Below are positions 2,737 to 49,100 of a stretch of DNA of 54,749 bases, piece by piece. The stretch is from an uncultured Bacilli bacterium (GTDB lineage: Bacteria; Bacillota_I; Bacilli_A; ML615J-28; CAG-313), in NCBI GenBank assembly GCA_934140285.1, contig CAKPBI010000012.1:1-54749 (forward strand), written 5' to 3'. The notes beneath the pieces were generated by a model. The model was not told where the DNA came from. It worked only from the letters and a program-made list of their open reading frames with translations, and searched no databases. The position numbers and the translations under genes were made by a program. Numbering within the stretch: the stretch's first letter is position 1; every line of letters starts with the position of its first letter.

Positions 2737-2842
2737 GTTCTTGTTCTTCTTTCTTCCTCAAGTAAAGTTTATAATTTAAATAATCATTAATGTGGCCGGT
2801 TTTTAAAAACTTATGCCATAAATCGTCAATGTGTTCTTTCAT
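2684..2842 (-). CDS. yqzL: YqzL-family small protein, 52 aa. Absent from the ORF track because it is under 60 aa.
   Basis: MKEHIDDLWHKFLKTGHINDYLNYKLYLRKKEE... matches Bacillus YqzL (FTWxxFSQTGNxxTYLLxKE). It occupies the era–recO gap exactly as in Bacillus and overlaps the recO start. Confidence 0.5.
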   Translation of the reverse strand: MKEHIDDLWHKFLKTGHINDYLNYKLYLRKKEEQEHETNNGERRTRVKNNRI

Positions 2843-2883
2843 ATAATTCCTCCTTATTAATAGGATGAACTAAATTTAAGTTT

Positions 2884-4189: not shown

Positions 4190-4197
4190 AATTTCAC

Positions 4198-7832: not shown

Positions 7833-7872
7833 AAAAAAGGCTCAAAGAATTTTTTCTTTGAACCCCTAACAC

Positions 7873-9231: not shown

Positions 9232-9267
9232 ATTTCCTCCCAATTAATTTTTTGAATCAAAGGGTAT

Positions 9268-9297: not shown

Positions 9298-9341
9298 TGC
9301 AACTAAAAAAGAAAAGAATGTTTTCTTTAAAAATTATATGA

Positions 9342-9410
9342 GTCGTAGTCTTGTTTTTATAGGCAACAAGGTAGAGACGTTCAAACCATACTATATTGAA
9401 TATATACGAC
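9342..9410 (-). promoter_or_regulatory. Purine riboswitch, guanine-specific, with C at the discriminator position
   Basis: Minus-strand RNA GUCGUAUAUAUUCAAUAUAGUAUGGUUUGAACGUCUCUACCUUGUUGCCUAUAAAAACAAGACUACGAC. P1 is GUCGUA/UACGAC, P2 is UUCAA/UUGAA with a UAUGG loop, J2-3 contains UCUACC, P3 is CUUGU/ACAAG, and a C lies immediately 5' of the P1 3' strand. Confidence 0.75.
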
Positions 9411-9425
9411 CTTTAATTCACTAAT

Positions 9426-9455
9426 ATTATACCATTAATCGACAATAGTTGTCTA
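9426..9455 (-). promoter_or_regulatory. Sigma-A promoter for the riboswitch/permease transcript
   Basis: Minus-strand -35 TAGACA, then a 17-18 nt spacer, then an extended -10 TGgTATAAT about 10 nt upstream of P1. Confidence 0.4.
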
Positions 9456-12788: not shown

Positions 12789-13131
12789 GCGGTTTAAAGA
12801 TTACCGCAATCAAAAAACTAGAAAAAATAGCCATGGCAATACCACTAGATGTTAGTTCAAAGATACCATTAAATAGACCGATAAATCCCATTTCCTTAGT
12901 TGCCATTAAAGCAGCATGGGTGAGAGAATGTCCAAATGAGGAAATCGGAACTAACGCTCCCCCACCACCAAATTCTACAATCATATCATAGATTCCAAAG
13001 GCTTCAAGTAAAGATCCTGCCGCAACATAAATGACAGTTAAATGGATAGGAAGTAATTTTAAAGTATCCATTAAAAGTTGGGCTATTAAGCATAAGAGTC
13101 CACAAGTAAGAAAAGCAAATAAATAATTCAC
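12781..13131 (-). CDS. spoVAEb: Stage V sporulation protein AEb
   Basis: 116-aa membrane protein of the SpoVAC/SpoVAEb family, placed between spoVAD and spoVAF. Confidence 0.7.
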   Translation of the reverse strand: MNYLFAFLTCGLLCLIAQLLMDTLKLLPIHLTVIYVAAGSLLEAFGIYDMIVEFGGGGALVPISSFGHSLTHAALMATKEMGFIGLFNGIFELTSSGIAMAIFSSFLIAVIFKPRG

Positions 13132-13132
13132 G

Positions 13133-14137
13133 TTAACTCCTTTCTAGTACTATTGCATGACTAATACAAGGTATTGATTCTTTTTGAGCTGTCATTATGG
13201 GGTTAAGGAGAGCGCCTGTCGCAAGCACTAAGATTTTCTTATACAAACCTTGATTTAAAAGATTAATTAAGTACCCAAGTGTTACTGCTGTTACACATCC
13301 ACAGCCACTTCCCCCCGCATAAACATCTTGTTTTTCTTGATTGTATAAAGTGATTCCCGCATCAATGTGTTTTTTAGTAATATTAATTCCTCTTTCTAAA
13401 CAACATTTTTCAAAGATATCACTACCATATTTAGAAAGATCACCAGTTACAATTAAATCATAGTTTTCAATTGTTTCATTAAAATTTTGAAAATGGTTAA
13501 ACATCGTGACAACCGCCGCCGGAGCCATCGTTCGTCCCATATCTTGAGCATCTTTTAATCCCACATCAATTATTTTACCAATAGTTCCTTTGGTAATTCT
13601 GATTTTACTTGGTTTTTTACCAAGAATCGCACAGCCGGCAGCCGTGGTAGTAAAAGTCATTGAAAGAGGTTTTTGTCCTCCATATTCGGTAGGATATCTA
13701 AATTGTCTTTCACTTGTCGCATTATGACTAGAGGTAACGCAAGTAACATACCTAAATAAATTACTATCAATTAAGATACTACCAAGAATTAAGTTTTCTG
13801 TAAAAGTTGAACATGCTGCAAACGTCCCCAAATAAGGGATAAATGATTCTCTCATCGCATAGGAGGTTACCGCGATTTGATTGTTTAAATCACCACCAAT
13901 TAACACATCAATATTTTCTTCTACTAAACCCGCTTTAGAAAGAGCTATGCTATAAGCCTTTTTTAAAAGATTCATTTCGGCTTGTTCCCAAGTATTACCA
14001 TCACAGTGAATATCATCATAAGAATAATCAAAATGATTACCAATGGGACCTTCTTGTTCTTTAGGACCTGTCACCACCGCTTTACTAATTAAATATACAT
14101 CATCAAATTCAATACTATTATTACCAACTCTTCTCAT
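13133..14137 (-). CDS. spoVAD: Stage V sporulation protein AD (thiolase/FabH-like fold)
   Basis: 334 aa beginning MRRVGNNSIEFDDVYLISKAVVTGPKEQEGP, typical of SpoVAD. Confidence 0.8.
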   Translation of the reverse strand: MRRVGNNSIEFDDVYLISKAVVTGPKEQEGPIGNHFDYSYDDIHCDGNTWEQAEMNLLKKAYSIALSKAGLVEENIDVLIGGDLNNQIAVTSYAMRESFIPYLGTFAACSTFTENLILGSILIDSNLFRYVTCVTSSHNATSERQFRYPTEYGGQKPLSMTFTTTAAGCAILGKKPSKIRITKGTIGKIIDVGLKDAQDMGRTMAPAAVVTMFNHFQNFNETIENYDLIVTGDLSKYGSDIFEKCCLERGINITKKHIDAGITLYNQEKQDVYAGGSGCGCVTAVTLGYLINLLNQGLYKKILVLATGALLNPIMTAQKESIPCISHAIVLERS

Positions 14138-14702: not shown

Positions 14703-17288
<2,586 letters not shown>

Positions 17289-29590: not shown

Positions 29591-31933
29591 TTATTCAACT
29601 AATGTAAACTCACAGTTACCACTTGTAATGTCCCCCGTAAGTTTTAGAACATCATTCACATTTACATCATCAAAGAATTTATGTGATGGATATGATGAAC
29701 TAATCATAATAAAATAATCACAAGTATCAAATGTTTCTGTAACATTTATATCCTTCTTACCAGTTACACGGTAGTTATCACCATCTTTTGTAATTCTAAT
29801 GATGTAATAATACGTAAATTTACCTGTTTTATCCATTTCATCATATGAATATAATAAAACATTATTAGGATAGATTGATTCATTCCAAACACCTTCATTG
29901 TATGCACCAATTTTTACATAACCTTTTGGTTCTGGTACAGGGTGTTCAACATCAACAGTTCCGGTAAATTCAATTGAGTTATAATCACAAAGTGATTTTT
30001 CAAATATTTGTGATAAAAGAGTAGTTCCTTTATATTTATAATGAAGATAGTCATTTAAATATAGTTTATAGTTATCTTCCATTACATATTCATCTAGTGG
30101 AATTACTCCAAGATTATGCTTTTCCGCAAATGCTCTGATTGCTTCATTGTAACTTAATCTTCCTGCTTCTGTATATTTCATTCCTGTATATTCAGAATAT
30201 CCAAGAGTACATACATAGATTTGAGGAGTACATAAGTTGTAGATTTTTGTAAGAATAGTTTCATATGCGGCGATGAATTCGGCTGCACTAAAGCCTGAAC
30301 ATACATCATTAGTTCCAAGATATAGGATAACTATATCAGGATTTCCATTTTCAACTAATGTGTTAATTCTCGCATCACTACATCCAGCGTTTTGGCCACT
30401 ACCTACTGCAGTTGATCCACTCCATGAGTTATTAATACCTAGAACCATCTTAGTTTTATTGATTAGTTGGCCCCACCAAGTTTTTTCCACACTCTTAACA
30501 TCTGCACAGTATGTTGGGTAGTAGTATCTACCTTCTTGTGAGTAATAACTATTCATTGATGAACCTGGAGCGTAGAAAGTTGAAATACTATCACCTAGAA
30601 TTGAGATTTTCTTGCCTTCAAGTTCTGTGTATTTGAATTTCTTAATTGTTAATGTATAAACTGCCGTGTATGTTACATCCTCAGTTACTTCAACAATATC
30701 TTTATCCCAACCACTAAATACATAACTACGTTTTTCATCATCTGGTCTTGTTGGATCACTAGGTACAGTTGGTATTGTACCATAATCGACAGTTTCTTCG
30801 GCCAAAACAGTTCCATTGTAATCTACAAATTTGTAGGTGTATTGTCGCTTTACTTCTGTGTATTCAGCTGTGTATGTTACATCTTCAGTTACTGCTACTA
30901 CTTCTTTATCCCAACCTTTAAAAGTATAAGAATATTCAGGAGTAGATGTTCTTGTTGGATCACTAGGAACAGTTGGTATTGTACCATATTCAACAGTTTC
31001 TTCTTTTAACACTGTATTATCGTAGTTTACAAATTTGTAAGTATATTGTCTTTTTACTTCTGTAAATTGTGGAGTATAAGTTGCCTCACCAGTTACGGCT
31101 ACTACTTCCTTATCCCAACCACTAAATTCATAAGCATATTCAGCTGTAGATTGTTTAGTTGGAGTAGGAATAGTTGGCATTGTACCATACTCTTCTTGTA
31201 AAGCACTTAGTACAGTTCCATCGTAATTTAAGAATGTAATTGTGTACTTTCTTTTTGTTTCTTTGTATTGAGCAGTAAATGTAATGTCACAAGTTAGAGT
31301 TCCTATTTCTTTATCCCAACCGATGAATTCATAAGTAAATTCAGGAGTAGCAGGTCTTATTGGATCAGTTCCTGGAACAAAAATTTCTGAACTATATTCT
31401 CCAGTACCAGTTTTTATCACTGTTCCATCATAGTTTAAAAACTTGTACGTGTATTGACGGTTTGCATCTTTATATTGAGCTGTAAACGTAATGTCACAAG
31501 TTAGAGTTCCTACTTCTTTGTCCCAACCAATAAATTCATAACTAATTAGTTCTGTAGATGGTTTGGAAGGTTCTGTTTCAGGTTCAAGGATTTTTGAACC
31601 ATAATCAACAGTTTCTTCTTTAAGTAGACTTCCATCATAATTTAAAAACTTGTAAGTATATTGTCTTTTTACTTCTTTGTATTGAGCAGTAAATGTAATG
31701 TCACAAGTTAGAGTTCCTACTTCTTTGTCCCAACCAATAAATTCATAATTGAATTCAATTGTACTTTCTTTAGTTGGATCTGAAGGCGCCTTAATTTCGC
31801 TTCCTTTTTTTCCTTGTCCTTCTAATAAAACAGTTCCATCTTCGTTAACAAATTTATATGTATATTGTCTTGAACAGCCAACTAACATAAATACAAGTGT
31901 TAACATTAAAATAAATGCAAAAGATTTCTTCAT
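29591..31933 (-). CDS. Surface lipoprotein with six tandem Listeria-Bacteroides repeats followed by an SGNH/GDSL hydrolase domain
   Basis: Lipobox MLTLVFMLVGCS. Six ~68-aa repeats of the form QYTYKF.NYDGT...YEFIGWDKEVGTLTCDITFTAQYKE. GDSIS, GTND and D..H SGNH blocks (ILGDSISTFYAPG...LYLGTNDV). Confidence 0.65.
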   Translation of the reverse strand: MKKSFAFILMLTLVFMLVGCSRQYTYKFVNEDGTVLLEGQGKKGSEIKAPSDPTKESTIEFNYEFIGWDKEVGTLTCDITFTAQYKEVKRQYTYKFLNYDGSLLKEETVDYGSKILEPETEPSKPSTELISYEFIGWDKEVGTLTCDITFTAQYKDANRQYTYKFLNYDGTVIKTGTGEYSSEIFVPGTDPIRPATPEFTYEFIGWDKEIGTLTCDITFTAQYKETKRKYTITFLNYDGTVLSALQEEYGTMPTIPTPTKQSTAEYAYEFSGWDKEVVAVTGEATYTPQFTEVKRQYTYKFVNYDNTVLKEETVEYGTIPTVPSDPTRTSTPEYSYTFKGWDKEVVAVTEDVTYTAEYTEVKRQYTYKFVDYNGTVLAEETVDYGTIPTVPSDPTRPDDEKRSYVFSGWDKDIVEVTEDVTYTAVYTLTIKKFKYTELEGKKISILGDSISTFYAPGSSMNSYYSQEGRYYYPTYCADVKSVEKTWWGQLINKTKMVLGINNSWSGSTAVGSGQNAGCSDARINTLVENGNPDIVILYLGTNDVCSGFSAAEFIAAYETILTKIYNLCTPQIYVCTLGYSEYTGMKYTEAGRLSYNEAIRAFAEKHNLGVIPLDEYVMEDNYKLYLNDYLHYKYKGTTLLSQIFEKSLCDYNSIEFTGTVDVEHPVPEPKGYVKIGAYNEGVWNESIYPNNVLLYSYDEMDKTGKFTYYYIIRITKDGDNYRVTGKKDINVTETFDTCDYFIMISSSYPSHKFFDDVNVNDVLKLTGDITSGNCEFTLVE
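30643..31867. repeat. Tandem ~204-bp coding repeats (6 copies), near-identical at the DNA level
   Basis: Recurring gtaaatgtaatgtcacaagttagagttcctacttctttgtcccaaccaataaattcata blocks, for example at ~31253, ~31474 and ~31684. Confidence 0.75.
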
Positions 31934-32110: not shown

Positions 32111-32149
32111 TGGAAAAAAGGATTTTGATGGTCTTTACAAAATCCTCTC
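32111..32149 (-). terminator. Terminator of the SPFH–TIR operon (after the pseudogene fragment)
   Basis: Stem aggattttg/caaaatcct at 32119-32147. On the minus strand it is followed by TTTTTTCC. Confidence 0.5.
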
Positions 32150-32182: not shown

Positions 32183-32390
32183 CAACTGTTTAAAGGTGTT
32201 GATTTACCTATATCAAGTGTTGAAATCATCTTCATTTCTTCAATTGCCAGTTCAAAGTCTTGTTTTAATCTTAAGACATTAGCTCTATTATGGTAATTTA
32301 AGACCTTTTCGTTATCGATTTAGGTTAGTACTGCTCGTTCTCCTTCTTCAACATTTAAGTTTCCCACACATTTTACATCTTATGTTTGCT
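32183..32390 (-). pseudogene. Decayed N-terminal fragment of a second zinc-ribbon/TIR-type gene, paralogous to the 5' end of 32418..34628
   Basis: About 85% DNA identity to 34480-34640. ATG is mutated to ATA, and there is an in-frame stop after CKMCGKLNVEEGERAVLT. The fragment translates as IDNEKVLNYHNRANVLRLKQDFE..., against IDNEKILNLHNRANALRLKQDFE in the full gene. Confidence 0.6.
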
Positions 32391-32417
32391 ATGTTATTCT
32401 ACTCTAAATTTTAATGT

Positions 32418-34628
32418 TTATTCAGATAGTTTTTTTCTTGCTTTAACAATTGTAACTATTCCTACAACGAAATTCCAAATTAACCCACCTGTAATTTTTG
32501 TACCTATATCTATGAATTGGCTACCTTCTGTAAGATCTTTTAAGGAGGAAATTAAACCTATTCCAAGTACAGCTGTAGCAACTAGCATTATTCCGTATAC
32601 AAAGTATATTTTAGTCATCATCTTCACAGAATTACCTAAAATAGCAATCACTAAAGCACTTAGAATACATAATCCAAAGACTACTAATGGATATATCACA
32701 TATATTTTTTCATCTGTAGTTTGGGCAGCATTAATGTTTTTAAATACTGGAATAAGGGTAAATACAATAAAGAAGATGAATTGTACTAAGAAACAAATAC
32801 CTAAAGATCTATTTTCTTTAAATGCTTCTTTTCTTTCGTACATATGATCTTGAATTATTGCTTTTTTACTTACACTTATTAATAATTCATTGGCATCTTT
32901 ATAGCCAGAACATTCTTGAAGTAGGGGAACAGCCAAACGATAAGCTTTTTGATTAATGTATGTTAAAGCAGTTTGATACTTAGACTCTCTGATTTGTTCA
33001 TTACATACGTTAACTTTTTCCTTAGTATCTCTAAAGAATGGAATGGTTCTAAAGATTTCTAAAGCTTCTATATATTTTCCACTATCAAAGTAGTAACAAG
33101 CCGTTTGATAGTTACGTTCATCGATAGCTACTTTGTAATCTTTAAGTAGTTGTGATGAATCTTTATAATTGATACAAAGATTAAGTTTCTTGATCGCTTC
33201 TTCATATCTTTTGTTAGAAGCAAATTCTAATGCTGCTTGATAGTATCCTTCATTTATTGCGTTAGTACAATAAGTGATTTGTTGTTTTGTATCTTTATAT
33301 GTTGGATATCTATTTAAAATGTTTATTGCTTCTTCATATGCACCACTTTCAATTAGTGGCATTGCTTTTTGATAGTTTTCTTCCATGATGTTATTTTGAA
33401 CATTTTGAACTGACATTGTTACTAATTCTTTTTCTGAATCATCACCATAAGTTAAAACTTTATTGTAGTTAATATTATTAGCAATTGATTTAGTTAATTT
33501 TAGTAAATCATCAGTAGAATTTAAATGTTCTGTAATTAATAATTTATATAAATATGCGGTACCTTCTTCAGGATTTTGATTTAGCACTTCTTCAAGTAGA
33601 GAATCAGCTTTTTGGAAATCATTATCCGCAATTAAGATTTTAGCTCTTTTTAAAAGTCCATCGTATGATTGTGTAGTATTCTCAGTTGGTTTTGTTTCTT
33701 TGACTGCACTTTTTTGATTTTCTTTTTCATTCTTGTTAAAGACTTTATCAATTCCTCTTATTAAGTCTTGGATAAATCCTATCTTATTTAGATCTTGAGC
33801 TTGTAAGCCTAACATTTCTTCTGGTAGGTCATATACTTCCATATCTCTATAACATGGGAATAAGTATTTGATTCCTGGTTTTTGATTCATTAAATATAAG
33901 AATCTACTCCATTCATTCTTTACCCATACGGCGTTAAAGTATTCTTGTTTTGTTCCTATTACAAGCATTACTTTACTTGAATTTAGGGCAGCGAAAATAT
34001 ATGGTTCATATTCTACACCTAGTTTTGATTCTAAGGTTATTCTTGAGAAGAATACTCGGTAGCCTTTTTTCGTTAATTCATCATATATTTGTTGGGCTAT
34101 TACGGAATCAACGGTTCTTTTTGAAGATGCATCGGTTTCTTTATAACATATAAAGATATCATAGGGTTCTTCTTTTTGAGATATTGCTAGGGCTTTCTTT
34201 TGAATATTAGCTATTTTATTAGCTTCTTCTTCATACACTCTTCTTGTTACTACATCACTATGTTCAATAGCTTCTTTATAATCTATATCATCAAAGATTG
34301 ATTGTAGTTGCATTCTATTGATTGTTGGTTTCTTAGTTCCATTGTAATCATCTACATAGGTTACTCCATACTTACATAGTAACATTCCAAAGTGAGCTTC
34401 TGCGTCTTTTGGGTTTTCTGCGATAATGCTTTCATATGTTAACATTGCTTTTTCAAAGTCTTGTTTTAATCTTAAAGCATTAGCTCTATTATGGAGATTT
34501 AAGATTTTTTCATTATCAATTTGTGCTGGCACTGTTTGTAAACTTCCACAGTACTCACATTCTACGGTTTGTTGCCCTGATTCAACATTTAGGTTTCCCC
34601 CGCACATTTTACATCTTACGTTTGCCAT
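32418..34628 (-). CDS. Membrane-anchored TIR-domain protein: N-terminal C4 zinc ribbon, TPR hairpin, TIR domain, ~6 Sel1/TPR-like repeats, 4 C-terminal TM helices
   Basis: MANVRCKMCGGNLNV..VECEYCGS zinc ribbon. The TIR domain YDIFICYKETDASSKRTVDSVIAQQIYDELTKKGYRVFF...SKVMLVIGTKQEYFNAVWVKNEWSRFL retains the catalytic Glu of the SxWCxxE motif. Repeats of the form Y..A......Y.......YKD. C-terminal hydrophobic helices. AAGAGGAG RBS. Confidence 0.7.
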   Translation of the reverse strand: MANVRCKMCGGNLNVESGQQTVECEYCGSLQTVPAQIDNEKILNLHNRANALRLKQDFEKAMLTYESIIAENPKDAEAHFGMLLCKYGVTYVDDYNGTKKPTINRMQLQSIFDDIDYKEAIEHSDVVTRRVYEEEANKIANIQKKALAISQKEEPYDIFICYKETDASSKRTVDSVIAQQIYDELTKKGYRVFFSRITLESKLGVEYEPYIFAALNSSKVMLVIGTKQEYFNAVWVKNEWSRFLYLMNQKPGIKYLFPCYRDMEVYDLPEEMLGLQAQDLNKIGFIQDLIRGIDKVFNKNEKENQKSAVKETKPTENTTQSYDGLLKRAKILIADNDFQKADSLLEEVLNQNPEEGTAYLYKLLITEHLNSTDDLLKLTKSIANNINYNKVLTYGDDSEKELVTMSVQNVQNNIMEENYQKAMPLIESGAYEEAINILNRYPTYKDTKQQITYCTNAINEGYYQAALEFASNKRYEEAIKKLNLCINYKDSSQLLKDYKVAIDERNYQTACYYFDSGKYIEALEIFRTIPFFRDTKEKVNVCNEQIRESKYQTALTYINQKAYRLAVPLLQECSGYKDANELLISVSKKAIIQDHMYERKEAFKENRSLGICFLVQFIFFIVFTLIPVFKNINAAQTTDEKIYVIYPLVVFGLCILSALVIAILGNSVKMMTKIYFVYGIMLVATAVLGIGLISSLKDLTEGSQFIDIGTKITGGLIWNFVVGIVTIVKARKKLSE

Positions 34629-34651
34629 GTTATTCTCCTCTTATTAAATGG

Positions 34652-36271
34652 TTATTCAGTTGGTTTTTTTGATCCACAATTTGGACAAAAATTAGTTGTA
34701 ATGTTCTTTTGTCCACATTCACAGTTCCAACCTTCACTTGGTTTTTTGATTCCACAGTTTGGACAAAAACCAGTGGTAACTTTTGTATGACAATTTGGAC
34801 ATTCCCAAGATTGAGCTTGTGGTTGAGATTCAGGTGATAGTGATTCACGAACTGTTCCGGCTACTTCACCCATTACCCCAAGACCAACACCAAGTCCTAC
34901 CATATTATTTACAATACTGCTCGCAGCTGCAGAACCACCTGATTCATTTGATGCCATTGCTACACCAATTTGACGTTTTGTTTCTTGTTCATAGGTGTAA
35001 CCTTTCATACGCATTTCTTGAGCTTCCGCTTCGGCTTGAAGACGGTATGCTTCTGCACTAGCTTGAGCCGCAATGATTTCTTCTTGAGCTTGAGTACGAG
35101 CTTCAACAAGTTTTCTTGCTTGAGCAGCTTCCGCTTCAGCTTGACGAATTCTTTCTTGTTGAACAAGTAAGTATCTTTCCGCGTGTTGTTCTTTTAACTT
35201 TCTGAAGTTTGGATCATCATCAGGAGTTACGATTGAAGTAATAAAGAATTCTGGCATCATTAGTCCATATTCAACTAATACTTCATTAATTTTATTCTTT
35301 AAGATTTCTGATAATTCATCTAAATGTTCATCTACTTCTAGGATGTTGATGTCATTTTCACGAATTGATTTTGCGAGATTAGTTTTAACTTTATTGATGA
35401 TTAAGGCTTTAAATTTGCCGGTCATCCCCGCAATAGAAGCATCACCACTAAAGATTTCATTTTGAGTTAAACCTGTAGTTGTACCTACAACTTTAATTAG
35501 TAATCTTCTAGCATCACTAACACAAATGTTGAATTGTCCACATGCTCCAAGTTCAATATGTAAACCAGAAATTGGGTCAAACATTCTTACCTTTGAGTCT
35601 GTTCCCCATTTAATTCCAAGTTGAGTAGTTAGATTTACAAAGTATATTTCAGAATAGAAAGGATCTTTACCACCAGTTGGAATTTGATATAATTTACTAA
35701 GTAAAGGTAGTGAATCGGTTGAAAGAGTGTAACGACCCGCTTTAAAAGTGTCAAGAGCTTGACCATCTTTAAAGAATACCGCAACTTGTGATTCATGAAC
35801 AATTAGTTGTGACCCTAAGTTAAAGTTTTCAACAGGGTGTTTCCATACAAAAACATCATTAGGTCCTTCATACTTAATTACCGAAATTGAACCTTCTTCT
35901 TGCATTTTATTTTTTGTTACTTCTTTTTGTACATCAATTACAGTGTCACATAAAGGACATTCACAAGTTGTTAGATTTTTACTTACAGTTAAAGTACAAA
36001 AACAAGTTGGACAAGTAATATCAACAGTTTTACTGATACTGCCTTCACTTATTACTTTTTCATGACACACTGGACATTCTGCATTAAATCCTTTTGTTTG
36101 ATCATATACAACGATGTTACCACAGTGTTGACATCTTATTGATTTTTGTTTATCTTTCTTTACATTAATAATATTTCCACATGAACATTTAATGTTCTTT
36201 TTTGCGAATAAAGATGTTGAAGCCTTGGTGAAAGTTCCACAACAAGGACATTGAATTAGAAAATTTGCCAT
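34652..36271 (-). CDS. SPFH/band-7 (YdjI-like, Band_7_1) protein with three N-terminal and two C-terminal zinc ribbons and an Ala/Glu-rich coiled coil
   Basis: CPCCG..CSCGN, CQHCGN..CPVCHE, CPTCFC..CPLCDT. SPFH core VIKYEGPNDVFVWKHPVENFNLGSQLIVHESQVAVFFKDGQ. RQAEAEAAQARKLVEARTQAQEE coiled coil. C-terminal CPNCHT..CPNCG and CECGQ..CPNCG. GGAGG RBS before the ATG at MANFLIQ. Gene A follows 23 bp downstream. Confidence 0.65.
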   Translation of the reverse strand: MANFLIQCPCCGTFTKASTSLFAKKNIKCSCGNIINVKKDKQKSIRCQHCGNIVVYDQTKGFNAECPVCHEKVISEGSISKTVDITCPTCFCTLTVSKNLTTCECPLCDTVIDVQKEVTKNKMQEEGSISVIKYEGPNDVFVWKHPVENFNLGSQLIVHESQVAVFFKDGQALDTFKAGRYTLSTDSLPLLSKLYQIPTGGKDPFYSEIYFVNLTTQLGIKWGTDSKVRMFDPISGLHIELGACGQFNICVSDARRLLIKVVGTTTGLTQNEIFSGDASIAGMTGKFKALIINKVKTNLAKSIRENDINILEVDEHLDELSEILKNKINEVLVEYGLMMPEFFITSIVTPDDDPNFRKLKEQHAERYLLVQQERIRQAEAEAAQARKLVEARTQAQEEIIAAQASAEAYRLQAEAEAQEMRMKGYTYEQETKRQIGVAMASNESGGSAAASSIVNNMVGLGVGLGVMGEVAGTVRESLSPESQPQAQSWECPNCHTKVTTGFCPNCGIKKPSEGWNCECGQKNITTNFCPNCGSKKPTE

Positions 36272-36309
36272 TCTCATTTCCTCCAATTTTTTCTAAAAAC
36301 GTTTTCTTT

Positions 36310-36338
36310 ATTTTATCATATTTTCTTTTCTTTTGCAA
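36310..36338 (-). promoter_or_regulatory. Sigma-A promoter of the SPFH–TIR operon
   Basis: Minus-strand TTGCAA, 17-nt spacer, TAAAAT, lying about 30 nt upstream of the RBS. Confidence 0.4.
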
Positions 36339-36413
36339 TTTTTTTGAAATATGGATTAAGGTAGGAAAAAATTGCAGACAAATTATGTACCTTTATTAAA
36401 GTATATGCTTAAT

Positions 36414-36452
36414 AAAAAAAGATTATTTTACTCAAAAAATAATCTTTTTAAA
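36414..36452. terminator. Terminator separating the helicase gene from the SPFH–TIR operon
   Basis: Symmetric hairpin aaagattatttt-actca-aaaataatcttt with A-run and T-run flanks. Confidence 0.55.
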
Positions 36453-36509: not shown

Positions 36510-39164
36510 CTAACTCCATCTATTTAGTTTATGTTTTTTTACTAACCTTTTAGCATTATAACTAATATATGATTTTTGTCTACACTTTAAGATTACCATT
36601 CTTCCTTCTTCATTTCTTGTATAAACAAGATCATATTTTCCCATAAGTTTTGATAGATATCTTTTAAATATTTCAGCTGTCTCTTTGTTTTTTCCAATTA
36701 TTGAAGGGCATGCGAAAGAGTATATATAGTTATATTTATTGAAAAGATTCTTTCTAATAATAACATATCTAGGATTATCAATGGGGTTTAAGAATTCGGT
36801 AATAGCCGTATTAAATAGATTTTGTTCAAATAGCGTAGCATTATTTAATGAAACATTAATGTATATTCCTTCTTTTTCACCATTTACTTTTAATGAACAT
36901 GGGGATTCAATAAGGTTTACATCTTTTAAGGTTTTTAAGATGCATTTAGCAAAGGTCTTAATTTGATTTGTTGGGTTTAAGTTAGCAAGTAACTTTCTTA
37001 ATACAAAAATCAAACCAACTCCCGTTATAATCAAAGTAATTACTATGGTTGTCATCACAAGAATTCCTAAACTTGATTCCATAGCAACTCTTGTGATAGC
37101 CATACATAAGGCGTTAATTATAATTGCTTCGATGGTTATGATTAATAAGGCATAAGCCATATTAATAAAAGTGAATACAGGAATTTTTCTAGTTTTAGGC
37201 ACTTCCGAACTAATGCCAACTTTTGATGTTTTTTCTAAAGAAGCTTGCCATCTTTCTTTTACTAGTATACGATTTTTAGATAATGCTAAAGTATTTTGGT
37301 TAATTTTTTCTATTCCCTTTTGATCATATGGTGGTTTAATGGTAGTTATTCTTTCGATTCCACTTTCTATCATATTAGTATCATAACTTGGTCCAACAAA
37401 ACAATCAAATCTTCGTTCTAAGGTTTGATAATCAACAGATTGAATAGTGTTATTATCACGATTAACATACCTTAATAATTTATTTGGGCCTTTTTCTTCA
37501 AACATATAGTCAGGTTCAATGGTAACTAAATGCCAAATGTTGGAAACTTTATCAGGATGGTTCTTATCAATTCTTATGGCACGTCCTCGCATTTGGTTTG
37601 ATAGCATAAAACTACCAATGAAACTAGCGAGGATTAAGGAGTTGATACATGGGGAATCCCAACCTTCACCAAGGAGAGATTTGGTACCAATTAAAATATT
37701 AATAAAGCCATCTTCAAATAATTTAGAGACAATTCTAACTTTATCTTTATTTGTACCCTTAAAATTAACGGTTGAATATGTTGTATTATCAATTGTTTTT
37801 GTAGTAAAGGTATAACTTTCTTTGAGTTTTTCTAGTAAAGAGTTAGGTAGAACAACCAAATTACCAGATAAGATTCCCATATTAATAGATGTTGATTTTC
37901 TAATTTTTTCAAAAATACTTACTACACTTACATTATTAATTGAATCATTTGTACCTACTTTATTAAGAGATTCTTTTTTGATGTAGTCAGTTAGAATTAA
38001 CATTCGAAGGTCGGCACCAAGAGATGAGTATTCACTTTCAACTATTTTTAAAATACTATCCATCTTACCAAGAGAACTAATTAAGTTTCTTTTTAATTTT
38101 TCATCTAATTCTAATGATACTTTATTTTTTTCATAAACTTGATTTTCTTTTAAAATTTTAATTAATTCTTCTTTTTGAATTTTTTTAATTAAATCAGAAT
38201 CAATTAAAAACTGAAGAGCGGTTTCAGCATAACTTAAGGTAAGTAGTGGAAGATATGTTACATTAGTTAGGGCTTTAATCAGTTTAGAATCAAGTTCAAA
38301 TTCATAATAGTTAAATAAAATTAATAAAGCAATGTAGTCTTTTACGTTAGTATAAATATCGGTTAACATACTTTTATAGTTAGTATTGATGCTTTCATAT
38401 AAAACATTAATCCAAGAAAGATTTTTAATTTCATTTAATGCATGATAGGAGTTTTCTTTATATTCTTTAAAAATTTTAGTTTCATCGCTTGTTGGATAAT
38501 TAAATATTACATAATCTTGATGAGGTGAAAGAGTTCCTTGTTTGACTAACTCAGGAACAAAAATTTCTTCATCAATTTCGCCACAAACACTGATGTAGCG
38601 TTGCCACTCGGTTGTTTTCGCATCATATGGGGGAGTCGCGGTTAATGATATAATTTTAACATCTTTATCTAAAGCACTAATAAATTTTTCTAAGGCTTTT
38701 TGCCATTCATTTTGTAAGTGGTGAGCTTCATCTAGACAGATAGTTTTAATATTGTTTTGTCGCATTATTTTAAACAAATCAATAGATGAATAATCAACAA
38801 TTTCATCTTCGGTGGCGACTTCAACTTTATTGATGGCAGAGTATAAGGCTTGATAAGTAATTGAATTAATAAAAACTATTTTATTTAAATCATAGTTTAC
38901 ATATTCACTAATATCAACATTATCTGGTAAAAAAGATTCTTTAAATCTTTCGCCCCATTGTTCTTTGATGGTGGTAGTAGGAGATAGAATGATACAAGGA
39001 TTACCAAGACGCCTTATTAACTCTAAACCAAGAATGGTCTTACCACTACCAGGAGCAGCAACAATGTTAATTTTACCATCAACAAGATAGGTATCAGCAG
39101 CATCTAAGATTCTTTGTTGATAACTTCTAAAGGTTCCTTTAAAACGAATATTATCTAGATTCAT
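36510..39164 (-). CDS. XPB/Rad25-type (ResIII) SF2 DEAH helicase with C-terminal transmembrane helices and an unknown C-terminal domain
   Basis: Motif I AAPGSGKT, motif II CLDEAHHL and motif III SLTATP. TM helices FTFINMAYALLIITIEAIIINALCMAI and LGILVMTTIVITLIITGVGLIFVL. The ORF-track start is GTG. The first ATG is at MNLDNI. Confidence 0.6.
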   Translation of the reverse strand: MNLDNIRFKGTFRSYQQRILDAADTYLVDGKINIVAAPGSGKTILGLELIRRLGNPCIILSPTTTIKEQWGERFKESFLPDNVDISEYVNYDLNKIVFINSITYQALYSAINKVEVATEDEIVDYSSIDLFKIMRQNNIKTICLDEAHHLQNEWQKALEKFISALDKDVKIISLTATPPYDAKTTEWQRYISVCGEIDEEIFVPELVKQGTLSPHQDYVIFNYPTSDETKIFKEYKENSYHALNEIKNLSWINVLYESINTNYKSMLTDIYTNVKDYIALLILFNYYEFELDSKLIKALTNVTYLPLLTLSYAETALQFLIDSDLIKKIQKEELIKILKENQVYEKNKVSLELDEKLKRNLISSLGKMDSILKIVESEYSSLGADLRMLILTDYIKKESLNKVGTNDSINNVSVVSIFEKIRKSTSINMGILSGNLVVLPNSLLEKLKESYTFTTKTIDNTTYSTVNFKGTNKDKVRIVSKLFEDGFINILIGTKSLLGEGWDSPCINSLILASFIGSFMLSNQMRGRAIRIDKNHPDKVSNIWHLVTIEPDYMFEEKGPNKLLRYVNRDNNTIQSVDYQTLERRFDCFVGPSYDTNMIESGIERITTIKPPYDQKGIEKINQNTLALSKNRILVKERWQASLEKTSKVGISSEVPKTRKIPVFTFINMAYALLIITIEAIIINALCMAITRVAMESSLGILVMTTIVITLIITGVGLIFVLRKLLANLNPTNQIKTFAKCILKTLKDVNLIESPCSLKVNGEKEGIYINVSLNNATLFEQNLFNTAITEFLNPIDNPRYVIIRKNLFNKYNYIYSFACPSIIGKNKETAEIFKRYLSKLMGKYDLVYTRNEEGRMVILKCRQKSYISYNAKRLVKKHKLNRWS

Positions 39165-39246
39165 ACTCTTCACTTCACTTTCTCAAATAATTATATCATT
39201 TTATGTTATTTTGTGTAAACTTTTTAAACTTATTACTTTTGTATAT

Positions 39247-40525: not shown

Positions 40526-41260
40526 CTATTCATTACTTTCTTGGATAGCTTTTTTAGTTTTACTTCTATTGATAAGAATAAATGGTAGTTGAAATGCTCC
40601 CATTAATACTACAGCGATTGTAAAAAGACTTATGAAGTAAACATACCATCCATGATCAAGATTTAAGATTGGTAGATTCTTCATTGGTGGTCTTGTTAAA
40701 TACATAAAGTTAGTTCCTTCAAAACTTAGGAAGCTATTAACCCATAGATTTAAGAACATCAACATAATTAGTAATGCATAATTGGTAAGTAAAGTTTTTA
40801 CATTAAATTTAACATGTTTTTCTCTTATTAAATAAATACCAAAAAAGATTAGAAAAGCATGATAAATAAAGTATTGATAAACTTGTACTTTCAAAAATGA
40901 TGTACCAATAGTTGGAATAAATAAGGATATGATGGCTCCCACGATTGAAGTTGGTACCATAAAGTTGTATAGTATTTGTTTGGTATTTTCATTTTTGATG
41001 AAAAATCTTAAACCAAAAATAAAGAAAATTTGAATACTACAAAGATGGAATGGTAAACTTCCGGGTTCAAGGACTTTTCCTCCATTGATGCCATCTTCCA
41101 TATTTAAAAGAATTTTAGTAACTTCACTTAAGAAACTAACAACACACATAATTGTTAAGACGGTTTTAAGTGATAGTGAAAAGTTTTTTGATAAAATAAG
41201 CATTAGTGCTATTATTAAAGCTGCGATAGCAAGCCAAATAAAATGTGTATATGTAAACAT
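40526..41260 (-). CDS. Integral membrane protein, TMEM164/YwaF (TIGR02206)-like
   Basis: 244 aa with 7 TM helices and the conserved LPFHLCS motif. Confidence 0.4.
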   Translation of the reverse strand: MFTYTHFIWLAIAALIIALMLILSKNFSLSLKTVLTIMCVVSFLSEVTKILLNMEDGINGGKVLEPGSLPFHLCSIQIFFIFGLRFFIKNENTKQILYNFMVPTSIVGAIISLFIPTIGTSFLKVQVYQYFIYHAFLIFFGIYLIREKHVKFNVKTLLTNYALLIMLMFLNLWVNSFLSFEGTNFMYLTRPPMKNLPILNLDHGWYVYFISLFTIAVVLMGAFQLPFILINRSKTKKAIQESNE

Positions 41261-41419
41261 GTTTTTACTCCTCTTCTATTTTTCCACCTTATTATTTTAC
41301 CATTTTTTATTGTTTATTTGTGTATCATGCAATATTTTTTACTTTTCTTTCTTTTTGGGTTTAATCTAAAATTTAAAAAAGAAGAAATATCAAGTAATAC
41401 TTCTTCTTTATTAAGTAAT

Positions 41420-42110
41420 GTAAAGAATTCTACTGATATCAGTAGAGTTTTTGACAGCCATGAAAATAAAATATCCTTTATGTTATACTATTGTTGTCAG
41501 ACAATGATAAACAGAAAGGACGATATTATTATACCACTTTTTTTATCTAACTTCAAATACACTAACTTTGATTTTGATAAACTTACTTTTAGACAAATTA
41601 ATACTACAATATATGTTGATGCTTACTATTTACCATCCATTTTAAATTGCCCAATTTGTGAATCTACAAGTGTAGTTAAAAATGGATATAAAACTAAAAA
41701 TATAAAACATTGTACTAATTACACTTGCTTTATATTGTTACTTGTCATATTTAAGGTTACAAATGCAATATCTGTAATTCTTTTATCTATGTTGATAGTA
41801 TTGATGGTAAAAGTAAACGAAGATTATCAAATGGCCCAATTGAAGGAATTAATTCCTTTATTTAAAAAATTAGAGTAAATGTAAATGGCTTTACTAATTT
41901 TTATCGTTTTAGAAACAAAGTTATTTATTCCGTAAATAAAAATGTACCACTGAAAATAAAGTAATTATCTATTTTACATTGTTTGACAAAACCCCTACCC
42001 ACTTTAAAGTGGATAGGGGCTTTTTATCAGTAGAATTTTTTACAAGCTCTTATTTGTACTTTATTTTTATAAATTCTTTTTTAACCATCAGTAGAATTCT
42101 TTACAGAGCC
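41420..42110. mobile_element. Insertion-sequence scar: several ISL3-like terminal-repeat copies plus a transposase N-terminal zinc-finger fragment
   Basis: TGTAAAGAATTCTACTGA-TA-TCAGTAGAGTTTTTGACAGCC, two ends head to head at 41421-41459. TCAGTAGAATTTTTTACAAGCTC at 42027-42049. TCAGTAGAATTCTTTACAGAGCC at 42088-42110, whose reverse complement GGCTCTGTAAAGAATT resembles ISL3 termini. Plus-strand fragment ...NCPICESTSVVKNGYKTKNIKHC at ~41645-41715 matches the ISL3 transposase N-terminus (CPHCGGTALKRNGFKP). Confidence 0.4.
41988..42026. terminator. Strong GC hairpin terminator
   Basis: cccctacccac-tttaaa-gtggataggggc followed by ttttt, at 41992-42025. Confidence 0.5.
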
Positions 42111-43115: not shown

Positions 43116-46100
43116 TTATTTATTATAGTTTGTCGCGTATAATCTTCTTAAGTAACTCCATTTAATTTCATTATAATTGCAACTGCTCGCAAGAGCTGTA
43201 ATGTTACCAGTCCCTACATGGTCAACTATGCAAACATTGTTTGTTTTACCATTTTCTATATTTTTGGTAATTGTGTTATAGTTAAGTGTAGAGTTCATTC
43301 CTTTAAGTTTGTTAAAAATATTAGGATATGCAACTTCAAATTCACTATATGTGTATTCTTCATAATAGTCTACTCCACGTTTAACCGCATTTTCATCCAT
43401 ATAAACAATATATTTTAAGTCATACATTGGTCCTTGTTCAGTCTCTTCTAAAATATAAATCCTAATTAATTCTAATTTTTCTTGTTTATCATATTCAAAT
43501 GAAATTAAATAGTCGTTACCATTAATTAAAACATCAGCAATTTGGTAATAGAAATTATAGTTAAGGAATGTACATTCATTGATTAAACCTTTGTTTAGAC
43601 CGACTATTCCTGATATTTCAAGAGAATCACTTAAATATTTACTGTTTCCTTCTCTAAAATTAATGAAGACTGCACGTTCAACAAAACTATTTTCAAGTAA
43701 TCCTTCATTATAACCTACTAAATTACCAATGTAAGTTTCAGTACTGCTTGGCAATGCAAATACTAAACTACCATTTCTACCAGCTTGTGTTGTATTTCTA
43801 ATTGTACCATAGTTACTTCCTACCACTGATCCAAGGTAACTTAAGTTATTACTTTCTAGTAATATCGTTCCATTCATTGAACTAAAGAAACCATCAATTG
43901 TTCCATTGTTTGTACCAATAGAACCACCAATTGTTATTTTCTTATTGGTTGTAATTGTTAAACCCACACTTTGACAACTTGCACAATCAATGATTCTACC
44001 AGTTGAAGTGACTTCTTTCGTAAAGGTACCAAATACTTCTTCTTTAGTTAGATTTCCTTCGTAGCTAAAGGCTGCACTTACAAATAGGTTATAAACTAAA
44101 CCACTAATTTTGGAGAATAGACCAAAGTCTTCTGATTTATCTACTTTTGCAATAAATCTAATGTTATGACCATTTCCATTAAATTTACCAGAGAAACCAT
44201 CTTTTGATGTTTTGCCTAAACTTTCCCATTTAATTGCATCTGCAAAGTCAGTATAAGCGGTAATACCAGTTAGTAAAATGTCATTTGTTAAAACATAGTT
44301 GGCATTAGGTGCATCATTTACTTTCTTAAGGTCTTCAAAATCTTTGATTTCAATTCCATAACATGCAAATAATTCAATGTTACCTTCGATTGCTGTTACT
44401 GGATTACCGTCTTTATCTTCATAATGACTGAAGATTAAGTTGTCTTTATCATAACTTGGTTTTTCAAGGTCTTTTGTTAAAGTACCAAATAGAACATTTT
44501 GTACTTTCTTTTCTGTTGAATTATCGCTAAACTTACCGATTGCACTATTGATTGTTACGGTAAAGCCTTCTGTGTTATCTTCAAATACTGCATAGTATGT
44601 TGTCTTTTTCGTGTAAACCATATTGTTTAGTTCATCCATGGTTATTAAATCATCACCATCGGTAGTCCAACCTACAAAGTGTTTACCATTACATTTTGGT
44701 ACATCTGTAAAGGTGATTTGATCACCACTTTTACCGAAATGATGAATTTCAACACTACCATCAGAGAATAGCATTAAGCCATCAATGATGTCTTTTTCTT
44801 CATTAACCCCACTATATGGTTCTGATTTAAAGGTGATTTCTACTTGTGCTTTTGTATCATGAAGATAAACTGCCGTATAAACGCGATCCTCTTCAAAGGT
44901 TACTTCTTCACCAGCTTTTACTTTAATAGTTGTTTCAACATTATTTTCATCAATAATAGTTGTTACAAATCCATCAAAGATATAGTATTCATCACTATAA
45001 TAGTAAACATTTGGAGCTTTTACGGTTGTTCCATAATTTTGAGTATAATTAACGAAATGACGTAAATCACCCATAACACCATTACAGTAAACACCTTCTA
45101 ATTCATTACCATCTGTATCATAACATTTACCATCGGAAATAAAGGTAATTGTTACTTCTTTTACTACTGGTTCCATAAAGATAATTTCTACATCGGTATT
45201 ATGGTCAAATGGAATTCTTGCCATATAGTTATCATTATAGAACTCGCTGATGTATTCTACACCATCTACTACCCATTTTAAGTGACTTGGTAAGTATGTT
45301 TTTGATTTAACATCAACTTTAAACATACTAGCAAGTAGGTAGTATGAAGTTCCATAAGTTCCCTCTACCGTAAGGGTCGTTTCTTCTTTGTTATTGTTAA
45401 AATAAACAATACCTGTGCCATCACCACTTGGAGCTTCTACTTGACCTCTAAAGTTAAGAGTTATTGTAGAAGGCTCTAAGATGTAATAAGCATAATATGT
45501 TTGATCACCTGTTCCAACATTAATTTCTAAATCCGTAATTCTCGTTGTTTCATCATAAAGTCTTGTTGTCCAATAAACAAAAACAAAAGTACCTGCTTCA
45601 GTTTGATAGTTAGTTGGGAAAATTTCACTTAGGTTGAGTATTTTATCAAATTGACCTTTTACTTGATATAACTTATTACCATCTTCAAAAGTTCCATCAA
45701 CCGCATCAAAAGTTATGGTATATTCTTTCTTTTCTTCTTGGTAGTTAGCTTTAAAGGTTAGATTACGTTTAATATTACCAGTCAAATCTTTTTCACTACC
45801 GATGATGTAAGTATCAATATCAACTCCCCAGTCAAGGAAAGTATATTGCCACTTACCTTCCGCATCAACTCTTGAAGGAGTCTCAATATTTTCTTGGTCT
45901 AAAACTTCTCTTAAAGTCTTTCCATAGTAATCACCTTTAACAATTTGATCATAATATTCATAACCGTAGTCAGAGTAATTCATAAAGTAAATTGTAACCT
46001 CAACTTTGCTTTCTTCAAATAAAGGAGTATATGTTACTGATGAAGTAAAGGCTACTCTCGTATTTGCATAGTAAAGTTCACCATTTTCATTTTTCCAACC

Positions 46101-49100
46101 GACGTAAGTATAGAATTTGTTAGACGTCATATCATAGTAATCATTTAAAGCTGGGAATGAATAATAGGAATCTTCATCTTCTTTACCATAGTTCCACATT
46201 TTACCTTTGACATTTAATACTGTCTTACCATCTTCAATTTCAATATTTCTACTATCAACAAATGATTGTAGTGGATTATCTAAAATGAATTTTGCATTTA
46301 ATTTTTTATAAGAATAATCTGCGGTTACATTGATATCAAAATCTTTACTTGGCATATTTTGTGGGTAAGTCGATAAGTCAGGCCAATTAACAACATAACC
46401 TTCTTCTAATACTTGATTTAGTAAACTACGTGGATAATCTAGGTAAGAACTTACGATTCTTTCATCATCAAAGTTTACTTTTAAAAGTTCGTAGTTGATC
46501 TTTTCGCCTTCTTTTACAGGATAACTACCAATATGTTTACCATCAAGGATGATATTAATATAATAAACTGGTAAACTAGCCAGTCCTTTTCTTTCATAAA
46601 GAACATAGTATATGCGGTTTTTATCAACTTTCGGCATATCTTCTACTTTATAATAACGATTATTATCATAATCATTGTTATTAATATCCATATAGCCAGT
46701 AACTATGTAAGTTTTACCATCATGGACAAACTCTGATCCAATACCATATTCTTGAGGTGGCAGTGGCGTGATTTCTTTACCACGATAGTCAAATGGTCGA
46801 TATTCTTGTTTAACTCTTGTTACCGATGTGGTTTCTAAAACATATGTTTCCGTATAAACAATAGTATCATCATATTTAGCATAGAAATCAAAACTATTAC
46901 TTTCACTGTTAAAGCCATTAATATAGTAATTATTAGTTTTATCAACCATAACCTTTGGGTACATTTTACTTTCAACATTTAAGCCTTTAAATACTTGGGA
47001 AGTTTTATCAACTAGATAATAGTTATTAGTAAAGGATAAGCCTTTTGGATTTTCATATCCTACATATTTTTTACCATCAATAGTTGGAACGGGAACTTCA
47101 TCAGTATGTACAATAAATGATTGTAAGTATGGTACATAGTTCATTTTAAATGAACCTACAAGTATATACTTTTCAATCGTTGAAGAACTACTATAATCAG
47201 GTACATAGAAATTACCTTCATAAGTTATTAATTTCCATTTTAAACGATAGTAGGTTGTTGATAAATCTTCATATCTAACTTTATTGAATTTACCATCCCA
47301 GTTTTCATCAACTTTATCTCCTAAATATGGGTAGTATTTTTCCCATAGATCATTGATGTCAAGATAATAACCATGACGAATTGGAAACATTGAAGGATCG
47401 GTAATTGGATTTACAACATATTCTCCTTCGGTTACCGCTTGGAAATCAATAACTTCTGAGAATTTAGTTCCAAATCCGTTATCATATTCATTTACGAATT
47501 TACTATTCTTTACCGCAAGATCACGCCCATGAGCATTGTAGTATTCCATGTAAACAATTCTTTCAATACCACTTGCCATCATTCCACTCTTTGGCAGTAA
47601 GGTTAGTTTTACTACGAATTTTAATGATTTTGGTTGATATTTTTTACTGATGTGCGTTCCTTGCCCACCTGTTAGTGTTACATAATTTTGATAATCGTCA
47701 GTTTGATAATTTGGATCATCAACAAATTCTATTTGGTAGTCAAAGCATCCGCCATATTGGTTGTGACTTGCTCTATCGATTACTCTTTCTCCGGTGACAA
47801 TATCTAAATATAGCATTTCAATATTTCTCATATTTACACCACTATATCTACCGGTTATAACATAAGGATCCTCTGGAGAATTACTTTTTTCCACAAATTC
47901 GAGTGGGATTAAGCGATCTCCTACATCATATAGTTTAATTTTAGTATCAAATAAATCTGTATTAATATCATATACTAAGAACATAGCACCGATTTTAGCA
48001 TTAACAAAAAGTCCAACTTCCAAATATATTCCCCCATATACTTGGGTTGCACTGACTTTTCTTACTGCATCATAGCTATATCTGAAACTTACTAACCCAC
48101 TTATTTCAATATATGGACCAAATCGGAATGAAACATATACGGCCGCAACTGAATTTAGTTGTAAAACTGATAAAGAAAGTTTCGCTTCAAGTCCACATCT
48201 AAATCCTACTTGACCTTTTAAGGTTATCGCAATGTCAATTTCATTTTCGGTAGTAACACGTGAAAATTTGAAAGAGTCATACATCACTGGTTTATTTCTA
48301 CCATCAAATTCACCAGTACCATTAGTTAGGGTTGTTGATTCAACATAATGATGATTAAACTCAATGTAAAGTCCTGCTCTAGCTCCAATAGAACCAACAA
48401 CATTAAATTCTATTTGTACACTTACAACCGGAAGTGGTAATGGAATAGCTCCAAGTTGAATATTGAAAATATCAACATACTCAAGTTCACTACCTTCTTC
48501 TTCAAATAAAGGACTATTAGTGATAGCTTCAGTAAATTTATTGTAAGCATTTTTATTTAAATCGATGATTTCTTTAATTTCATTGGATATATCAATACGA
48601 TTTAAAGTATCATCGCTATCTGTTGCTTCTATTTTTGCTTCTAATGATATTGAGAAATCATTACTTAAGTTTACTTGAACATTAGTATAGAACCAAAGTA
48701 ATGGATTAAGCGTTATTTTTTTAGATTTATAGATCGTATAGTTGTAATTTACTTCCGTTTTGTTTTTTATTACAACACTAACTTCAATTTTAAACTTTTT
48801 GATTTGAAGTTCCCCACTAAGTTCGATTTCAAATCCTAGAGAAGTTCCACTAATGTCAACTTTTACTTTTGGACGTTGGAAAGAGAATCCAGCAAGTTTT
48901 TGCATGAATACTTCTCTTTCATTTACATCTTTAATGTTTGATGCATATTCAGCGATGGTCTTAGACTTGTTTAATGATTTTACAATTGAAGATTTGATTT
49001 TTTCTAAACCTTCGTTATGTTCAAGATTTTCGATAATCATCTCTTCAGATAGTTCAATCATTCCCTCTAACCTGGCTTCTTTATTACCATAAACATCAAG

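Follow-up and report, generated by a model that had tools for sequence, protein, structure and literature searches.

What could a membrane-anchored TIR protein be doing next to an SPFH scaffold protein? The question is raised by two adjacent genes, B and A, in a 54,749-nt stretch of DNA from an uncultured Bacilli bacterium (contig CAKPBI010000012.1, assembly GCA_934140285.1). We call this whole stretch the window, and coordinates below refer to it unless another locus is named. Both genes are on the − strand, with B (34652..36271) first and A (32418..34628) following after 23 bp. B encodes a 539-amino acid (aa) SPFH protein of the Band_7_1 type with zinc-ribbon arrays at both ends, and A encodes a 736-aa protein with a zinc ribbon, a TPR-like region, a TIR domain, an α-solenoid and four transmembrane (TM) helices. 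A preliminary description of the sequence had given these reading frames and their spacing, which we could reproduce, and had proposed that the two genes form an undescribed defense or membrane-stress module. From sequence comparison, we conclude that this TIR–SPFH membrane module is real and conserved, and that none of the systems described in the searched databases and papers corresponds to it.

Conservation of the B–A pair in Bacillota

A profile of B, scanned against one genome per GTDB species, found the family in at least 594 species, and the 80 best loci were taken for neighborhood counts. In 66 of these 80 loci, one to five A-family genes lie within 10 kb of B, always on the same strand as B; most of the other 14 loci are on short or truncated contigs. 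The same association is seen when the search starts from A, since all three of the A-seeded loci sampled have a Band_7_1 gene and a gene for a protein of 232–237 aa, with A and B on one strand. Just after B, 65 of the 80 loci encode a third protein, C, of about 232 aa, with four TM helices and a helical tail, and the gene order of the cluster is [A]n-B-C-[A]n. The conserved same-strand co-location supports the view that A and B are a functionally linked pair.

Both families are large. At E ≤ 0.001, there are at least 8000 members of the A family and at least 6066 of the B family, from 8000 scored candidates each, in gut Bacillota. Bacillota account for nearly all of the 80 listed loci; one is labeled Bacteroidales. 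The carriers among them include Lachnospiraceae, Oscillospiraceae, Ruminococcus, Acutalibacteraceae, Blautia, Holdemanella, Coprobacillus, and metagenome-assembled genomes (MAGs) of Bacilli. Ruminococcus sp. FC2018, Blautia sp. HCP3S3_C4, Pseudoflavonifractor capillosus An827, and Holdemanella biformis are cultured carriers, so the cluster is directly testable.

A hidden Markov model (HMM) of the 65 C proteins found no C in the six-frame translation of the window, and C is also missing from the loci L010, L013, L046, L052, and L058. The two-gene operon of the preliminary description is thus a real pair, but, judged by gene content, it is a minimal, reduced form of a widespread Bacillota cluster that usually has C and several A paralogs. 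The idea that the four-TM tail of A is a fused copy of the missing C was rejected, because the C-family HMM matches neither A nor anything else in the window, and because A variants with several TM helices also occur in loci that have C. In one Clostridia cluster (L101), a 319-aa protein with a faint SIR2_2 match is encoded between the A and B homologs (13065..14024 of that locus); it may be an accessory NAD-related component.

Domain architecture of A and B

The domains that the preliminary description had assigned to A are all found, and, like those of B below, they are encoded on the − strand. At the N-terminus is a C4 zinc ribbon with β-hairpins (C6, C9, C24, and C27; aa 6–27, 34548..34613), in which C9, C24, and C27 are invariant. 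It is followed by TPR-like helical hairpins, a conserved β-hairpin (GxxYVDD...KPTxxR), and a linker helix (aa 40–152, 34173..34511). The TIR domain occupies aa 155–296 (33741..34166), with a near-invariant WxxxE motif (W235...E239). The α-solenoid, aa 322–600 (32829..33665), consists of TPR-like hairpins in repeats of about 44 aa (Y..A......Y.EA......Y.D). The four predicted TM helices are at aa 611–730 (32439..32798), and the K/R-rich flanks on both sides of this bundle imply an N-in, C-in arrangement. Window A has no ectodomain.

The TIR_2 model (PF13676) matches A at aa 158–281 with 42.5 bits against a cut-off of 28 (E 1.1e-10), and the region has the flavodoxin-like βαβα arrangement of a TIR fold. 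A phmmer search with A against the PDB sequences gave no match, and a profile built from the TIR regions of the family had to be used. With this profile, E239 (W-V-K-N-E-W) aligns with the Glu of L6 'SKWCLMEL' and of the TLR 'WCQYEL', which bears out the earlier claim of a catalytic-type glutamate. The closest fold matches include the nonenzymatic adaptor TIRs of TIRAP and MyD88. The motif W[VL][KR]NEW is found in 254 of 257 A-family members, and the TIR regions are 61–78% identical even between divergent members, a degree of conservation that points to strong purifying selection on the domain.

An exhaustive HMMER search with aa 1–400 of A gave 3920 clusters at 50% identity (E ≤ 1e-30). Among the 150 best hits listed, this 400-aa module is at the very N-terminus in 149, in proteins of 430–2571 aa, and the N-terminal ~380 aa are strongly conserved throughout the family. 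Beyond the solenoid, most relatives have exactly one TM helix, which is followed either by nothing or by one of several domains (DUF6273, Flg_new, BspA-type leucine-rich repeats (LRR), RCC1 β-propeller, or HlyD-like). Some relatives are soluble, and some have a bundle of three to five TM helices like that of window A. For 102 single-pass relatives, the mean number of K plus R is 6.4 before the TM helix and 1.9 after it, which supports an N-in/C-out topology, with the TIR module in the cytoplasm and the variable domain outside. The positive-inside rule in these relatives, together with the K/R-rich TM flanks of window A, thus shows the zinc ribbon–TPR–TIR–solenoid module to be cytoplasmic. The C-terminal domains of the relatives are of extracellular types; one of them, DUF6273, is C-type-lectin-like and is found in phage receptor-binding proteins and in the targets of diversity-generating retroelements (PMC10743442).

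Tandem A paralogs are 86–100% identical over the N-terminal 300 aa, while their distal parts are only 23–35% identical. This combination of constant N-termini with divergent distal parts points to a cassette-like evolution of the A family. In the locus L006 (5034..7965), an A relative is split into a 554-aa TIR protein followed by a separate 418-aa RCC1 β-propeller protein, showing that the distal modules can be separate genes.

B was described earlier as an SPFH core with an Ala/Glu coiled coil and terminal zinc ribbons, and this architecture holds, with three N-terminal ribbons that had been mentioned only loosely. These three ribbons (CxxC...CxC/CxxC) are at aa 8–108 (35948..36250), and their cysteines, C8, C11, C29, C31, C47, C50, C66, C69, C87, C90, C105, and C108, are invariant in 10 homologs. 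The SPFH/Band_7_1 core is at aa 148–352 (35216..35830) and matches PF13421, the model of YdjI-like, COG4260-type SPFH proteins, with 131.9 bits against a cut-off of 24 (E 3.2e-38). A long Ala/Glu/Gln-rich helix, coiled-coil-like, then extends over aa 354–441 (34949..35212), as judged from the alignment and from a low-confidence AlphaFold2 model, in which the helix covers aa 354–422 and 427–441. This model, made from a 10-sequence alignment, has a predicted local distance difference test (pLDDT) score of 60.9, which is too poor for a fold search, so it was used for secondary structure only. B has no canonical TM helix. The conserved Gly-rich hydrophobic segment MVGLGVGLGVMGEVAG, at about aa 455–475 (34847..34909), in which G459, G461, L464, G465, and V470 are invariant, is a possible membrane-associating element.

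At the C-terminus of B are two zinc-ribbon units (W-x-C-x-CG...FCPNCG; aa 489–535, 34667..34807). The number of these units varies among strains. By protein comparison of near-identical strains, the 26-aa unit is present in two copies in the window, three in P0122, and four in L010 and P0121, and one of the three units of P0122 has lost two Cys. Tandem Repeats Finder detected no repeat at the 3′ end of the B gene. Loci whose B has more C-terminal zinc ribbons tend to have more TIR genes (Spearman 0.46, p 0.019, n = 26, uncorrected for phylogeny). The window, with the fewest units (two), has one A, its second paralog having been lost, and L010, with four units, has two. We keep this correlation as a lead, a weak hint that the zinc ribbons of B may contact A. 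In the locus L099, a B variant (7398..8720) has a SHOCT domain in place of the zinc-ribbon arrays, and it is flanked by A homologs and a 237-aa membrane protein.

The preliminary description had compared B with YdjI, whose family is tied in Bacillus to the PspA membrane-stress response. The resemblance to Bacillus subtilis YdjI/SamI stands. Both are Band_7_1 proteins with a soluble-type SPFH core, a coiled-coil or low-complexity region, and one or more C-terminal zinc ribbons, which follow that region in B as in the description of YdjI, and both are encoded beside membrane proteins that could anchor them. However, B has three extra N-terminal ribbons and an array of C-terminal ones, and the likeness to the YdjI operon does not extend beyond B. 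The partners of YdjI in the pspA-ydjGHI (samGHI) operon include YdjG, which has two zinc ribbons, an NTF2-like domain, and a TM helix, and YdjH, a TPM-domain protein (PMC11237479, PMC8581546). Neither PspA nor a protein of the YdjG or YdjH type is found among the window neighbors, and neither PspA nor TPM is among the 25 families most often matched by the 140 flanking proteins of the related loci. The partner of B is instead a TIR protein. B also resembles the SPFH proteins of the HflK/C-FtsH and stomatin-NfeD pairs, in that it is encoded with a specific membrane-protein client that it presumably organizes, but that client is a TIR protein rather than a protease or NfeD.

A shares with the TIR proteins of bacterial antiphage systems (ThsB, TIR-SAVED, TIR-STING, SpbK, and BcTir/Tpr) the TIR fold, a WxxxE-type Glu, and an expected requirement for TIR self-association; in BcTir/Tpr, as in A, the TIR is combined with TPR-like repeats. 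It differs from them in its membrane anchor, its N-terminal zinc ribbon, and its hypervariable distal module, and its partner is an SPFH scaffold rather than SIR2/Macro/SLOG, STING, SAVED, or Argonaute. The pair has no HMM match to any component of Thoeris or the other TIR antiphage systems, and the A–B locus has no evident defense-island context. The NCBIfam model of the Thoeris-III protein ThcB4 scores A at 30.6 bits against a cut-off of 220 (E 1.5e-7), and there is no SIR2/Macro/SLOG effector in the window. Full-text literature searches returned no paper coupling SPFH with TIR. Relative to animal Toll-like and IL-1 receptors, the A family has the opposite orientation, its TIR lying toward the N-terminus and its ectodomain at the C-terminus, and window A has a four-TM bundle and no ectodomain. 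The likeness to these receptors is drawn as an analogy, and homology of the whole architecture is not implied.

Function of the module

To our knowledge, the TIR systems characterized in bacteria are nearly all soluble and detect infection from within the cell. The A family brings a highly conserved catalytic-type TIR to the membrane, where it is coupled to an SPFH scaffold and to hypervariable modules that lie outside the cell or in the membrane, and many of its carriers are dominant gut Clostridia. If the TIR is active, membrane or surface events organized by an SPFH microdomain would be a new trigger for TIR NADases, and bacterial SPFH proteins would gain a concrete client. Should the TIR prove to be just a scaffold, the cluster remains an envelope complex that is widespread among gut anaerobes and unstudied.

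The best explanation that we can offer, and one that we hold tentatively, is that A is an envelope-triggered TIR NADase organized on an SPFH scaffold. B would oligomerize beneath the membrane, as YdjI/SamI and other SPFH proteins do, and would dock the A proteins through a predicted contact of its zinc-ribbon arrays with the zinc ribbon and TPR surfaces of A. Docking on B would keep the TIR domains of A organized and inactive. A disturbance sensed by the membrane module or ectodomain of A would then shift this arrangement; phage adsorption or injection, envelope damage, and a surface ligand are the candidates. The TIR domains would self-associate and cleave NAD+, and NAD+ depletion or a nucleotide signal would lead to growth arrest or an abortive-infection-type response. 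There are precedents. The Bacillus cereus TIR/TPR pair is antiphage, and TIR–TPR assemblies can give antiphage NADase activity (bioRxiv 10.1101/2023.05.26.542521); YdjI/SamI is recruited by membrane partners and organizes a sub-membrane stress complex (PMC8581546; bioRxiv 10.64898/2026.02.06.704340).

Is the pair a defense system? The near-invariant catalytic-type TIR, the paralog arrays with hypervariable binding modules, and the differing genomic positions among taxa all favor a role in conflict or recognition, and we regard a defense role as plausible on these sequence features. At some loci, the neighbors include AbiH, PDC-S01, LeoA/BC, AbiLi, a DRT-type helicase, AriA, resolvases, integrases, and transposases. 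The faintly SIR2-like gene of L101 and the B. cereus TIR/TPR precedent weigh on the same side. Nevertheless, the defense reading of the preliminary description is not demonstrated, and several observations count against an envelope-triggered NADase serving in defense. The locus is chromosomal and only weakly linked to defense or mobile genes: just a handful of the 140 nearest neighbors match defense models, and across genomes, the neighbors are mostly housekeeping or heterogeneous genes (spoIIIA, aspS, lon, topA, thiI). Within the species, the pair is at a fixed site between the helicase and lipase genes, the same in all conspecific contigs examined, with no evident defense island. In 2.9 million viral contigs, only seven B-like and two A-like loci were found. 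The cluster encodes no downstream effector for a TIR-made signal and no effector besides the TIR itself, whose NAD+ hydrolase or cyclase activity is putative, read from the motif. The contact between A and B, which is central to the mechanism, is likewise a prediction, and the model of B has a pLDDT of 61. Since window A has no ectodomain, any sensor here would have to be the four-TM bundle. Finally, none of the families in PADLOC-DB v2.0.0 is matched by A, B, a C-family protein, the second A paralog of L010, or an RCC1-type relative of A. A phage-borne or prophage origin was rejected on the near-absence from viral contigs.

The same features could also be explained without immunity. The pair might be an envelope or membrane homeostasis complex, in which B is a YdjI/SamI-like organizer and the TIR of A is a nonenzymatic oligomerization module. 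The Pfam family and C-terminal zinc-ribbon architecture that B shares with YdjI (PMC8581546, PMC11237479), the stable chromosomal context beside housekeeping genes, the cell-surface and adhesin types of ectodomain in the A relatives, and the resemblance of the TIR to nonenzymatic TIRAP and MyD88 all fit such a complex. However, the near-invariance of the WxxxE glutamate and of the TIR residues around it exceeds what a pure scaffold needs; PspA, TPM, and NTF2 partners are absent; and expanded paralogs with hypervariable distal parts are more characteristic of recognition systems. We consider this explanation doubtful, though a serious contender. Extracellular ligands other than phages are another possibility. 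A transmembrane receptor array for glycans or for molecules of the host or neighboring cells, in which ligand binding by the variable ectodomain would have the TIR make a nucleotide second messenger that tunes physiology, with B and C as a signaling platform, would account for the N-in/C-out relatives with lectin-like, LRR, RCC1, or Flg_new ectodomains, for the presence of up to five paralogs per locus with differing distal parts, and for the great abundance of the A family in gut Clostridia. It seems unlikely to us, because the cluster has no recognizable receiver for a nucleotide signal, window A has no ectodomain, and some A relatives are soluble.

Two other explanations are contradicted by the data. 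That the pair belongs to a described TIR defense system (Thoeris types I–IV, TIR-STING/SAVED, SPARTA, or Avs) or to the pspA-ydjGHI operon is suggested by the weak match of A to ThcB4 and by the Band_7_1 family that B shares with YdjI, but the tests make it highly improbable. The ThcB4 score is far below its cut-off; A, B, C, and the relatives have no PADLOC match; there is no ThsA-type, STING, SAVED, Argonaute, or STAND NTPase partner; and equivalents of PspA, YdjG, and YdjH are absent. The claim of the preliminary description that the pair matches no named system is thus upheld, and the pair is not a core PspA/YdjGHI operon. That A and B are unrelated genes brought together by chance is scarcely credible, since their same-strand adjacency is kept across families, Bacilli, Oscillospiraceae, and Lachnospiraceae among them, although the flanking genes are unrelated.

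The envelope-triggered NADase may also be extended to the whole family, although we offer this as speculation that is more probably wrong than right. The A proteins would be a huge and undescribed family of transmembrane TIR receptors in gut Firmicutes, with a constant cytoplasmic zinc ribbon–TPR–TIR–solenoid part and an interchangeable outside or membrane sensor (DUF6273, LRR, β-propeller, Flg_new, or TM bundle). Arrayed on the SPFH scaffold, they would turn surface events such as the arrival of phage receptor-binding proteins or an envelope breach into NAD+ cleavage, as a counterpart, in outside-in immune sensing, of the logic of Toll-like receptors.

Expression signals and local neighborhood

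B starts at the ATG at 36271, in agreement with the homolog N-termini 'M(A/S)KF(V/L)I(E/Q)CP', and a TTG at 36286 is a mechanical alternative. A GGAGG ribosome-binding site (36280..36284, −) is located 8 nt ahead of this ATG. The dedicated sigma-A promoter proposed earlier corresponds to a SigA/sigma-70-like site upstream of B (36310..36338, −) with TTGCAA, a 17-nt spacer containing TG, and TAAAAT, a 9/12 match. The site is present, but 24 such sites are found in the region, compared with 24.3 expected from shuffled sequences, so it is a consensus-level match only. Terminators had been proposed on both sides of the pair, and these are supported by folding. An AT-rich hairpin with a U-run at about 36411..36450 (−), 3′ of the upstream helicase gene, has a folding energy of −12.5 kcal/mol (z −4.0), and another at about 32114..32145 (−), downstream of A and of the stub described below, has −13.3 kcal/mol (z −3.3). 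Both AT-rich hairpins fold much better than shuffled sequence. A terminator scan of the region found neither of them, because the scan demands G+C-rich stems.

The pseudogenized duplicate of the preliminary description is confirmed as a stub (32242..32392, −) that carries a frameshift and derives from the N-terminus of a second A paralog. The intact paralog, A2, of 815 aa, is found in L010 (CAKPAZ010000013.1), a related MAG with ~89% nucleotide identity, where the gene order is helicase, B, A, A2, aldo/keto reductase, lipase. Comparison with this order shows that the window has lost A2 and the aldo/keto reductase gene. The arrangement helicase, B, A, lipase is kept in the conspecific contigs with enough readable flank, so the locus is stable within the species, with small-scale variation around it. 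The neighbors of the pair in the window are helicase, F420-ligase-like, TMEM164-like, and GDSL lipase genes. In L010, an additional HTH_3 regulator (324 aa) and a BspA-type LRR protein (804 aa) are encoded at 1351..4846 between the PRiA4_ORF3-like and TMEM164-like genes; their absence from the window is evidence of local gene flux. The insertion sequence scar noted earlier is also real: the open reading frame at 41243..41878 (+) is a truncated ISL3 transposase that has 93% identity with the first 138 aa of a 504-aa copy, which sits intact at the same site in the conspecific contig L105.

The upstream neighbor of B (36510..39173, −) encodes an 887-aa superfamily 2 helicase with ResIII, DEAD, and Helicase_C matches, predicted TM helices near aa 660–730, and a further C-terminal domain. 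A membrane-anchored helicase is an unusual architecture. It was rejected as a part of the system, since it adjoins B in L010 and in the conspecific contigs and is missing from all other related loci. The gene immediately downstream of the operon (29591..31933, −) encodes a lipoprotein-like protein of 780 aa, in which a GDSL lipase/esterase domain comes after six Flg_new-like repeats of about 70 aa. A much longer gene at 43116..50264 (−) encodes a 2382-aa protein (2294 aa in one conspecific contig), in which only N-terminal Flg_new (Listeria-Bacteroides) repeats were recognized and which is probably a surface protein of giant size.

Elsewhere, the window is ordinary chromosome, with recO, era, phoH, RNase J, gerA, purine genes, and transporters. 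A single 856-aa reading frame at 14703..17273 (−) is a purB-purA fusion, in which adenylosuccinate lyase (Lyase_1 and ADSL_C) is joined to adenylosuccinate synthetase. A purine riboswitch (9326..9429, −; 62 bits) lies upstream of a xanthine/uracil-family permease gene (7873..9243), and a second permease is encoded at 6435..7832.

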